In this document: positions 34,179-36,797 of the stretch, piece after piece
Position numbering within the stretch: the stretch's first letter is position 1
How the letters are laid out: every line of letters begins with the position of its first letter
Assembly (NCBI GenBank): GCA_005882055.1
Contig: VBGQ01000095.1
Coordinates: 1-41,815, forward strand
Length of the DNA: 41,815 nt
Direction: 5' to 3'
Source of the DNA: Chloroflexota bacterium
GTDB lineage: Bacteria; Chloroflexota; Limnocylindria; QHBO01
Program-made: the position numbers and the translations under genes
The notes under the pieces: model-generated
What the model saw: only the letters and a program-made list of their open reading frames with translations
Databases searched by the model: none
Told to the model about the DNA's origin: nothing

Positions 34179-36797
34179 GTGGCAATCAAGGTTGAGAGCG
34201 AGATCGGCGGACAGAGCTTCTCGCTCGAGGCGGGCAAGCTGGCTGAACAGGCCGACGGCGCCGTGCTCGTTCGATACGGTGACACCGTGGTGCTGGCCAC
34301 CGCGGTCGCCAAGGAGCCCCGCGAGGGACTCGACTTCTTCCCAATGACCATTGATTACGAGGAGCGGATGTACGCCGCCGGGAAGATCCCGGGTGGCTTC
34401 ATCAAGCGTGAGTCGCGCCCGTCGGAGGCGGCCATCCTGGCCATGCGCCTCACCGACCGGCCGATCCGGCCGCTCTTCCCCAAGGGCTACCGCCAGGACG
34501 TCCAGGTCGTGCTGACCGTGCTCTCCGCGGACCAGGAGAATGACCCCGACATCCTCGCGGTGAACGGTGCGTCGGCGGCCCTGGCGATCAGCTCGATCCC
34601 GTTCCTCGGCCCGGTTGGCGCCGTCCGCGTCGGCCGAATCGGCGGAGAGTTCGTGACCAACCCGACCACCAGCCAGCTCGACGAGAGCGAGCTCGACCTG
34701 GTGGTCGCCGGCACCCGCGACGCGGTGATGATGGTCGAGGCCGGCGCCAAGATCCTGCCCGAGTCGGTCATGGCCGATGCCATCGCCTATGGCCAGCAGG
34801 AGCTCCAGAAGAGCATCGACCTGCAGGAGAAGCTGGTCGCGACCGCCGGCGCGCCAAAGAAGATGCCCTTCGTCGGGCCAAAGGCCGATTCGGTCGTCAA
34901 GCTCGCCGCGCGCCTCGCCGAGGGCCTATCCGAGTTCGTGGTCTTCGACGTCGAGACCACCGCCATGAAGCCGGAGAACGGCTACATCGTGGACATCGCC
35001 GCGCTGCGCGTGCGCGACGGTCAGGTGGTGGATCGCTTCGATTCGCTCGTCAACCCGGGCCGCACCATCGTCGGCCACCAGGTGCATGGCATCTCGGACG
35101 CGGACGTCGCCTCGGCGCCCACCGCCGCGGACATCCTGCCGCGCTTCGCCGAATGGGTCGGCGATGCGCCACTGGTCGCACACAACGTGGCCTTCGACCT
35201 GCCGTTCGTGCTGCGTCACCTGCCCAACGACGCGAAGTGGGGGCCCAAGGATGTCTTCGACACCCTCGAGCTCGCCTACCAGATCTATCCCGACGCGGGG
35301 AGCTGGAAGCTTCCGGATCTCGTCCGCTTCGTCTTCGGGCGTGAGCACGCCTCGGCCCATCGCGCGATGCCGGACGCCGAGGCGACCGCAGAGCTGTTCA
35401 TCGAGATGACCCGCGGCCTGCCGCAGCGCCTCGACGAGATCCGCGCGGACATCGCCGATGAGGTGCGTCGAGCACGCGACTCGTACAACCGCGCCGAGCA
35501 GGGAGACCGGCTCGAGGACATCCGGCGCCGCCATGGCATCGGTTCTGGACTGATGGACGTTCTCACCAAGGCGACCAGCCGCGAGCTGGTGCTCTCCGAG
35601 AACGTGCGCATCGACGGACGCGACAGCAAGACGATCCGACCGATCAGCGTCGAGGTCGGCCTGCTGCCGCGCACCCACGGGTCGGGCCTGTTCACCCGTG
35701 GCCAGACGCAGGCGCTCTCCATCGCCACGCTGGGGCCGTCCAGCGACGTGCAGCGGCTCGACACCATCTCGCCCGAGACGGAGAAGCGCTACCTGCACCA
35801 CTACAACATGCCCCCGTACTCCACCGGCGAGGTCAAGCCGATGCGCGGCCCGGGCCGTCGCGAGATCGGGCACGGCGCGCTCGCCGAGCGTGCGTTGATC
35901 CCGGTCCTGCCATCGGTCGAGGAGTTCCCGTACATCATTCGCGTGGTGAGCGAGGTGGTGAGCTCCAACGGCTCGACCTCGATGGCCTCGACCTGCGGCA
36001 GCACGCTGGCGCTGATGGATGCGGGTGTCCCGATCAAGGCACCGGTCGGCGGCGTGGCCATGGGCCTGATCACCGATGCGGCGACCGGGCGCTACGCGGT
36101 GCTCACCGACATCAACGGCAAGGAAGACGCCTACGGCGACATGGACTTCAAGGTGACCGGCACCGCCGAGGGCGTGACCGCGCTGCAGATGGACATCAAG
36201 GTCGCCGGCATCACGCCCGAGATCATGCGTGACGCGCTGGAGCAGGCGCGCATCGGTCGCCTCTTCATCCTCGACAAGATGACCGAGGTGATCAGCGCCA
36301 GCCGCAGCGAACTGTCGCCGTACGCGCCCCGGATCCACACCATGAAGATCCCGGTCGACAAGATCCGCGACGTGATCGGTGCGGGCGGGAAGGTGATCCG
36401 CCAGATCACCGCCGAGACTGGCACTCAGATCAACGTCGAGGACGACGGCACGATCCAGATCGCGGCCACCGACGGGGAGGCGGCGCAGAAGGCGATCCGC
36501 TGGATCGAGGGCCTGACGCGCGACGTCGAGGTTGGCAAGGAGTACCTGGGCAAGGTGACGCGGATCATGAACTTCGGCGCCTTCGTCGAGATCCTGCCCG
36601 GCAAGGAGGGACTGGTGCACATCAGCCAGCTCGCCGACTACCGGGTGCCGCGGGTCGAGGACGTGGTGGCCATTGGCGACGAGCTGATGGTGATCGTCAC
36701 CGAGATCGACCGCATGGGTCGCATCAACCTGAGCCGCCGAGCGGCGATGGAGCGCCACATGGCGCGAAGCGGCGCGGGAAGCGAGGAGCGCTCCTAG
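34179..36797 (+). CDS. pnp: Polyribonucleotide nucleotidyltransferase (PNPase) carrying an inserted DEDDh exonuclease domain
   Basis: The ORF contains RNase PH1 ([25 protein letters not shown]), PH2 (RIDGRD..TIRPI...[39 protein letters not shown]), KH ([10 protein letters not shown]) and S1 ([16 protein letters not shown]). At 872 aa it is about 160-170 aa longer than typical PNPases. The extra residues lie between PH1 and PH2. Confidence 0.93.
34932..35415 (+). other. DnaQ/RNase T-like DEDDh 3'-5' exonuclease domain embedded in pnp (aa ~252-412)
   Basis: ExoI is FVVFDVETT (D257, E259). ExoII is [13 protein letters not shown] (D340). ExoIII is [14 protein letters not shown] (H394 and D399, H-x4-D). 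It is in frame, with no stops, and is flanked on both sides by PNPase alpha-helical-domain sequence. Confidence 0.8.

Follow-up and report, generated by a model that had tools for sequence, protein, structure and literature searches.

A DnaQ-type DEDDh exonuclease domain inserted into the polynucleotide phosphorylase of Limnocylindria

To our knowledge, the domain plan of polynucleotide phosphorylase (PNPase), a first RNase PH module (PH1), a helical domain, a second RNase PH module (PH2), KH and S1, hardly varies among bacteria, chloroplasts and human mitochondria, and all solved PNPases recovered here share it. What, then, is a second exonuclease domain doing inside the PNPase of a Chloroflexota bacterium of the class Limnocylindria? 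The pnp gene that raises this question lies in a 41,815-nucleotide (nt) stretch (contig VBGQ01000095.1), hereafter the window. The fusion of PNPase with a DEDDh exonuclease domain is real, conserved, uncharacterised and mechanistically suggestive.

Domain layout and insertion borders

The pnp open reading frame (ORF) is uninterrupted, and its product is identical to NCBI protein TME32934.1, as found by exact look-up in the protein collection. The product matches the PNPase equivalog TIGR03591 with 969.9 bits (cut-off 525) and NF008805 (PRK11824) with 966.9 bits (cut-off 471), in each case in two stretches split by the insert (NCBIfam). Pfam detects RNase_PH twice, RNase_PH_C twice, KH_1, S1 and RNase_T on the 872 amino acids (aa). 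By these profiles, the protein is a genuine PNPase, laid out as follows.

34179..36797, + strand: pnp ORF, 872 aa, GTG start
34215..34799, + strand: first RNase PH module, aa 13-207 (Pfam RNase_PH aa 13-141, RNase_PH_C aa 144-207)
34884..34934, + strand: helix 1 of the PNPase helical domain, aa 236-252, directly 5' of the insert (predicted helix 236-247; aligns to 5yjj ~252-269)
34935..35414, + strand: DnaQ-type DEDDh domain insert, aa 253-412 (Pfam RNase_T, TIGR00573, structure prediction, Foldseek)
34944..34961, + strand: Exo I motif, F-D257-V-E259-T-T, with invariant D257, E259, T260 and T261
35181..35198, + strand: Exo II motif, H335-N-V-A-F-D340, with invariant F339 and D340
35358..35375, + strand: Exo III motif, H394-R-A-M-P-D399, giving the 'h' of DEDDh, with invariant H394, R395, A396 and D399
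35415..35600, + strand: last three helices of the PNPase helical domain, aa 413-474 (predicted helices 414-431, 438-452 and 456-474)
35601..36323, + strand: second (catalytic) RNase PH module, aa 475-715 (putative phosphate site S599-T600-S601; metal site D650, D656, K658)
36336..36509, + strand: KH domain, aa 720-777 (Pfam KH_1, E=4e-12)
36525..36740, + strand: S1 domain, aa 783-854 (Pfam S1, E=7e-18)

The original prediction, made from the letters alone, had proposed a single 872-codon frame with an embedded DEDDh domain at 34932-35415. The frame corresponds to the ORF at 34179..36797; the coordinates correspond to aa 252-412 and bracket the Pfam RNase_T match (aa 254-407). Residue counting in the translation confirms the predicted catalytic positions (D257/E259, D340 and H394/D399) and places RIDGRD at aa 477-482 and LPRTHGS at aa 496-502. 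The proposed profile check returned RNase_PH, KH, S1 and RNase_T, with TIGR03591 at 970 bits, and the embedded domain is borne out by hidden Markov model (HMM) profiles, PDB sequence search and predicted fold.

A phmmer search against the PDB aligns query aa 6-252 with 5yjj 21-269 and query aa 459-855 with 5yjj 313-707, leaving 206 query residues in the insert region against 43 in this canonical PNPase. The full-length AlphaFold2 (AF2) model runs from a helix at 236-247 through an alpha/beta domain at ~252-411 to helices at 414-431, 438-452 and 456-474 and then PH2, with a predicted local distance difference test score (pLDDT) of ~86-97 across aa 250-470. In the alignment with E. coli PNPase, the helices 3' of the insert fall on the C-terminal portion of the helical domain and reach as far as the RIDGR that both enzymes share. 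Because this alignment places the later helices after the insert, the DEDDh domain (aa 253-412) separates helix 1 of the helical domain from helix 2, and nothing of that domain appears lost. The PH1-PH2 link is therefore no uninterrupted all-helical one: its helices stand on both sides of the insert, which parts them by 160 aa. Helical sequence on both sides, and insertion into the helical linker in place of a terminal fusion, had both been predicted; the 5yjj and E. coli alignments and the AF2 helices agree with this. The insert has a G+C content of 0.68-0.69, matching the rest of pnp with no step at the junctions, as had also been claimed for its composition. The Pfam helical-domain model PF03726 was not detected in the query at E<=0.01, and in the second of the two cluster searches described below, only a few relatives list it among their precomputed Pfam domains.

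Canonical bacterial PNPases (E. coli, C. crescentus, S. antibioticus) have the same order of PH1, helical domain, PH2, KH and S1, and the rpsO-pnp gene order is common to both. They differ in that their helical domain is whole, whereas the Limnocylindria enzyme carries a 160-aa predicted catalytic domain after helix 1. Foldseek with the full-length model recovered solved PNPases at E-values of 1e-50 to 1e-65 and template modelling (TM) scores of up to 0.87-0.88, normalised by target length. PNPases were the only matches in this full-length search, and the insert was therefore modelled separately. The S1 domain and C-terminal tail (36525-36797, aa 782-872) reach a pLDDT of only ~30 in the full-length model, despite the strong Pfam S1 match, which is probably a limit of the shallow two-lineage alignment.

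The nature of the embedded domain is well defined by profile searches. Pfam RNase_T (PF00929) matches aa 254-407 with 87.6 bits (gathering threshold 24; E=1.7e-24) over the full profile, 1-164 of 164, and a phmmer search of PDB sequences also places the block as a DEDDh domain. Among DEDDh models, the domain-level TIGR00573 is the only one past its NCBIfam cut-off of 71.5 (74.0 bits with the whole protein, 75.1 bits with the insert alone), while the equivalog models for epsilon, PolC and DinG stay below theirs. The epsilon-proper models score well short, with TIGR01406 at 80 bits against 222.7 and PRK05711 at ~70 bits against 196. The nearest NCBIfam families are the PRK07883 DEDD exonuclease (141 bits), the DinG N-terminal exonuclease and the PolC exonuclease; no RNase T or Orn model is among the best 25 families for the insert.

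The AF2 model of the insert alone has a pLDDT of 92.7. Its top Foldseek match is the PolC exonuclease domain (9qrn/9qpc; root-mean-square deviation 2.7 Å, 34% identity), followed by other neighbours that include the S. aureus DinG exonuclease (8zef), an S. thermophilus DnaQ domain (8h2f/8h18), Pol III epsilon, ExoX, ExoI and TREX1/2. We take 8h2f/8h18 to be a Cas2-DnaQ fusion, a description that the search output itself does not give. The Foldseek probability is 1.0 for the PolC, DinG and epsilon exonuclease domains, and target-normalised TM scores against epsilon, ExoX and DnaQ domains are 0.77-0.84. RNase T structures appear at rank 22 or lower, and Orn/REXO2 is not among the best 50 matches. 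Because TIGR00573 alone passes its cut-off, RNase T ranks so low and Orn/REXO2 is absent from the top 50, the insert is assigned by profile and model to the DnaQ/PolC/DinG-exonuclease group and is not an RNase T or Orn orthologue. The predicted label of DnaQ/RNase T-type thus holds in its DnaQ half, refined to DnaQ/PolC/DinG-type, and fails for RNase T proper by both NCBIfam and Foldseek.

PolC, DinG, the DnaQ-GIY-YIG protein PRK07883 and the 8h2f/8h18 DnaQ domains share the fold and the DEDDh motifs and are closest by HMM and Foldseek. PolC likewise carries its DEDDh domain as an internal insertion in a larger enzyme. The hosts differ: in PolC, DinG and PRK07883 the host is a polymerase, helicase or repair nuclease, whereas here it is a phosphorolytic RNase ring. 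Among free-standing DEDDh proteins, the closest (P0130, P0164 and others) are ~45% identical to the insert; neither these relatives nor one genomic context (L084) identified the donor lineage.

Conservation and distribution of the insert

Do both active sites look functional? Among 94 sequences from two lineages, D257, E259, T260, T261, F339, D340, H394, R395, A396 and D399 are invariant (94/94), and the DEDDh pentad is unchanged in all 67 sequences that align in frame over the motif. The apparent exception at motif I, in the long-read metagenome-assembled genome (MAG) L080, arises because its ORF segment is out of frame there. In the phosphorolytic core, 19 functional positions of E. coli PNPase were mapped, of which 16, all catalytic ones included, hold the same residue. 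D486, D492 and K494 (query D650, D656 and K658), S437-439 (S599-T600-S601), R398/R399 (R560/R561) and H403 (H565) map to positions conserved in 94/94, as are those of R93, R97 and R100. The substitutions relative to E. coli, F78-R79 to I-K in the channel loop and S438 to T, are fixed in 94/94; phosphate-binding and metal-binding residues are otherwise conserved as in canonical PNPases, and so are channel residues apart from F78-R79. By residue identity, the DEDDh and the phosphorolytic sites both look functional.

Ratios of nonsynonymous to synonymous substitution (dN/dS; Nei-Gojobori, 400 random pairs of loci) are 0.21 for the insert, 0.185 for PH1, 0.17 for PH2 and 0.12 for KH-S1; by this measure, the insert is under purifying selection close to that on the PH domains. 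Identity between lineages is 0.71 in the core and 0.44 in the insert. The insert measures 158-160 aa in every relative compared, and pairwise distances of core and insert are correlated (r=0.95 overall, 0.77 within lineages; Mantel p=0.001). Together, the invariant pentad, the dN/dS, the fixed length and the correlated distances indicate one old acquisition, vertical descent with the core and selection on catalysis. The insert was evidently acquired before the two main Limnocylindria lineages split. One 889-aa NCBI relative (P0007) carries a 20-aa tandem duplication (APTAADVLPKFSTWIGDSPE x2) inside the DEDDh domain, either real or an assembly artefact.

The same residues bear on a non-catalytic role, in which the module would bind nucleic acid or a partner, or gate the side pore for exchange of nucleoside diphosphates (NDPs) and phosphate, without cutting. 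In canonical PNPase, the helical domain has been proposed to regulate how NDP and phosphate reach the active site (PMC2723993), and inserted domains are, as a matter of general knowledge, sometimes kept as scaffolds. Since all five metal-binding and general-base residues, together with T260, T261, F339, R395 and A396, are invariant while the insert is only ~44% identical between lineages, a dead scaffold is very unlikely.

Searches of protein clusters at 90% identity (JGI, ENA, NCBI and Logan assemblies) extend the architecture across at least 240 listed clusters. All 120 listed from the query search combine PF00929 with PNPase domains and are 85-97% identical, and a second search, from P0129, again gave 120/120 listed clusters with this architecture. 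Source labels of the clusters are Chloroflexota, Ca. Limnocylindria, Limnocylindrales and Limnocylindrus. A scan of GTDB species genomes, run with the insert region, extends it to at least 88 GTDB species, with 88 encoding stretches on contigs of up to 2.2 Mb, of which 80 stretches were kept for analysis. Among 50%-identity representatives, which were searched exhaustively, the divergent P0129, P0123 and P0124 are 37-43% identical over the insert region and have the domain at the same position; the P0129 cluster includes Ca. Limnocylindrus sp. A full-length representative of the query's own cluster did not appear in this 50%-identity search, probably since that cluster was merged with canonical PNPases at this level. 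Other long matches there were multi-DnaQ, BRCT, GIY-YIG, PolC or DinG proteins and were set aside as not being PNPases. Across these collections, the inserted DEDDh domain is read as a class-wide PNPase feature of Limnocylindria, present in two deep lineages of uncultured soil and freshwater bacteria.

A candidate insert-less allele, the 711-aa P0275 of the Limnocylindrus cluster, proved to be an N-terminal truncation only, aligning to residues 154-864. Spread to other phyla was likewise rejected: four loci labelled Dormiibacterota, Methylomirabilota, Steroidobacteraceae and Solirubrobacterales (L016, L037, L054 and L073) match Chloroflexota-labelled loci in synteny, flank identity and GC, with flanking genes as identical to those of the window as in Chloroflexota-labelled loci. 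These contigs are most likely mis-binned or mislabelled. P0043, labelled Zixibacteria, also has a Limnocylindria-type pnp; the synteny comparison covered the four loci only. In MAG SMAG_U3892 (DATBIK01), two contigs (L029 and L035) each carry an insert-bearing pnp, which points to strain mixture or contamination and not to a true paralogue. The pnp frame is broken by frameshifts in the long-read MAGs L075, L076, L077 and L080. As the rest of each frameshifted pnp is highly conserved, this looks like indel sequencing error, not gene decay.

Could a chimeric assembly or frame error have fused a dnaQ-like gene to pnp? The window contig does hold one probable indel error, which splits infB in two frames. 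Set against this are the recurrence of the architecture in 240 listed clusters from independent JGI, ENA, NCBI and Logan assemblies and in 80 fetched loci, contigs of 1-2.2 Mb among them, the fixed length and position of the insert and a composition continuous over the junctions. We regard an artefact as next to impossible; the original prediction had named read coverage of the junctions as its safeguard against chimerism, and hundreds of independent assemblies, with contigs of 1-2 Mb, now serve that end.

A full-text literature search, with subscription journals largely outside its scope, found no paper on a PNPase with a DEDDh insert. The earlier suggestion that the architecture is undescribed therefore stands for the searchable literature but not for sequence collections, where proteins with PF00929 and PNPase domains are already public. 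At JGI they frequently bear the name 'DNA polymerase III epsilon subunit family exonuclease', which reflects the domain only, and at NCBI they are plain PNPase; neither name conveys the fusion. A second predicted catalytic domain, class-wide and selectively maintained, would be a departure from the conserved PNPase plan. It offers a natural experiment on the function of the helical domain and side pore, and on why PH-ring nucleases often pair with a hydrolytic partner (Rrp6/Rrp44, RNase D, Orn/REXO2).

Possible roles of the second active site

Our favoured reading, which we hold with about even confidence, is that the housekeeping PNPase of Limnocylindria is a dual-mechanism 3'-5' exonuclease, with the hydrolytic site working alongside the phosphorolytic core on PNPase RNAs. 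Each subunit would possess two 3'-5' exonuclease active sites, one phosphorolytic and one DEDDh. The DEDDh module would be an active Mg2+/Mn2+-dependent hydrolase releasing nucleoside monophosphates from single-stranded 3' ends; we infer the metal-dependent 3'-5' activity of this predicted site from the invariance of its residues and the dN/dS of 0.21. Such a site could provide phosphate-independent, irreversible removal of 3' nucleotides or tails where phosphorolysis stalls or reverses.

In published structures the PNPase helical domain occupies the ring face opposite S1/KH and forms part of a pore reaching the active site, a side pore thought to govern NDP and phosphate traffic, not RNA entry (PMC2723993). 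Since the helical domain is thus opposite KH/S1 and lines the side pore, the trimer should, by analogy, bear three hydrolytic modules, all on the distal face and close to the side pores. The division of labour would be the same as that of a separate DEDD or RNB nuclease recruited to a PH ring elsewhere.

In the exosome, an Exo9 PH ring that is itself inactive is paired with Rrp6, a DEDDy nuclease, and Rrp44. The Caulobacter degradosome, in which PNPase and RNase D are assembled on RNase E, places RNase D beside PNPase, and the parallel with Rrp6 and the exosome was drawn there (PMC4245959). Both the exosome (Exo9 + Rrp6 + Rrp44) and this degradosome thus combine an S1/KH-capped PH ring with a DEDD-superfamily hydrolase, as is predicted here (PMC4245959 for the degradosome). 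In both, however, the nuclease is a separate, non-covalently bound DEDDy polypeptide, whereas the Limnocylindria domain is DEDDh and covalently inserted. The Limnocylindria PNPase would carry its hydrolase on the face opposite the cap and, unlike the exosome, appears to keep the ring's own active site intact.

The idea of a phosphate-independent partner predicts that Limnocylindria would be without RNase II/R or further hydrolytic 3' exoribonucleases. The class is represented in metagenomes from soil and freshwater, and phosphate-independent 3' decay could matter where phosphate is scarce. Weighing against the dual-mechanism reading, the nearest characterised relatives of the insert (PolC, epsilon, DinG, ExoX, ExoI and TREX) mostly act on DNA 3' ends, so that RNA as main substrate follows from the host protein, not from the domain.

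A stronger version, to us an improbable conjecture, is a one-polypeptide exosome-like machine in which one RNA 3' end switches between the two chemistries. Stalled or reversed phosphorolysis, possibly triggered by phosphate shortage, nucleotide damage or modification, or a duplex close by, would let the 3' end exit the PH2 site by the helical-domain side pore. The freed end would be captured by the DnaQ-type site on the helical domain, much as ends switch between polymerase and exonuclease sites in proofreading DNA polymerases. If true, the enzyme would be the first PH-ring nuclease of bacteria to incorporate its hydrolytic partner, and nature would have provided a test of the reason for which exosomes combine PH rings with hydrolases.

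Two further readings depend in part on genes near pnp. The conserved cluster order is nusA-infB-rbfA-nrnA-truB-ribF-rpsO-pnp...rnj in the window, L082 and L083, and the members that bear on function are as follows.

30791-31954, + strand: NrnA-type DHH/DHHA1 gene, between infB/rbfA and truB, in the same place in both Limnocylindria lineages
33685..33972, + strand: rpsO (ribosomal protein S15), in its usual place upstream of pnp (Pfam Ribosomal_S15, E=1e-34), as in L082 and L083
36807-37520, + strand: family-4 uracil-DNA glycosylase (UDG; udg), starting 10 nt past the pnp stop and overlapping the rnj start by 8 nt
37513-39177, + strand: RNase J (rnj), part of a tight pnp-udg-rnj-ftsK array

A serious alternative, which we consider possible but somewhat improbable, is that the domain keeps a DnaQ/PolC/DinG-type substrate preference and that this PNPase serves chiefly in DNA repair or R-loop removal, with the KH/S1/PH ring as a platform for binding nucleic acid. 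The best NCBIfam matches (PRK07883 at 141 bits, then the DinG N-terminal and PolC exonucleases) are consistent with this, as is the fact that the best structural neighbours of the insert are all DNA-acting exonucleases. Of the characterised proteins, those most closely related to the domain work on DNA ends or on RNA in hybrids (PMC12525004). For PNPase itself, functions have been reported at DNA ends and in recombination (PMC2709576, PMC3241651, PMC5379764), as well as in R-loop homeostasis (PMC10362022). The family-4 UDG gene 10 nt downstream of pnp in the window seemed to fit as well. This adjacency is not pnp-specific, because asd is inserted between pnp and udg in the Limnocylindrales lineage while udg stays with rnj, and we ruled it out as a functional clue. 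The gene also sits in the standard rpsO-pnp position of RNA metabolism. As general knowledge, DEDDh sugar specificity is not predictable from family placement; RNase T and DinG are each active on both sugars.

The position of the insert invites one more reading, that the DEDDh domain clears 2-5 nt PNPase leftovers as a built-in Orn/REXO2 by the exit of the phosphorolytic site. PNPase leaves a short oligonucleotide product (PMC11572968), and the insert would lie beside the side pore of the active site (PMC2723993). Both Orn and REXO2 belong to the DEDDh enzymes and are coupled in function to decay of the PNPase type, acting as hydrolases downstream of PNPase in E. coli and human mitochondria. 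They are separate proteins of another DEDDh subfamily, to which the insert is not closely similar, with Orn/REXO2 outside its best 50 structural neighbours and no Orn model among its best 25 NCBIfam families.

The Limnocylindria cluster, moreover, already encodes an NrnA-type enzyme, in the same conserved place in both lineages. This DHH/DHHA1 protein matches solved NrnA-type structures (Rv2837c/NrnA and TM1595) at E-values of ~1e-40 to 1e-43, and NrnA is its best NCBIfam match, but at 88.8 bits against a cut-off of 350. The conserved NrnA-type gene in the pnp cluster weakens the leftover-clearing role, which we judge unlikely, and with it the nanoRNA form of the roles conjectured in the original prediction, which had ranged over difficult 3' ends, tail editing and DNA repair.

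Other genes in the window

An Rfam scan of the window gave no match. Two further protein-coding loci upstream of rpsO deserve mention.

28742-30022 and 29866-30555: infB (IF2) in two overlapping ORFs in different frames, with the break near 29857-29900
32816-33595, + strand: ribF homologue, 259 aa, with the FAD_syn domain only

The ribF relatives in L082 (4729-5616) and L083 (7694-8581) are 295 aa long. A flavokinase domain was not detected in the homologue of the window, L082 or L083, and the protein may have FAD synthetase as its sole function, or its C-terminal half may be divergent. The split infB is probably an indel error in the window contig, a pseudogene being less likely; the two halves share one frame in all 57 related loci holding both, apart from the frameshifted long-read MAG L080.

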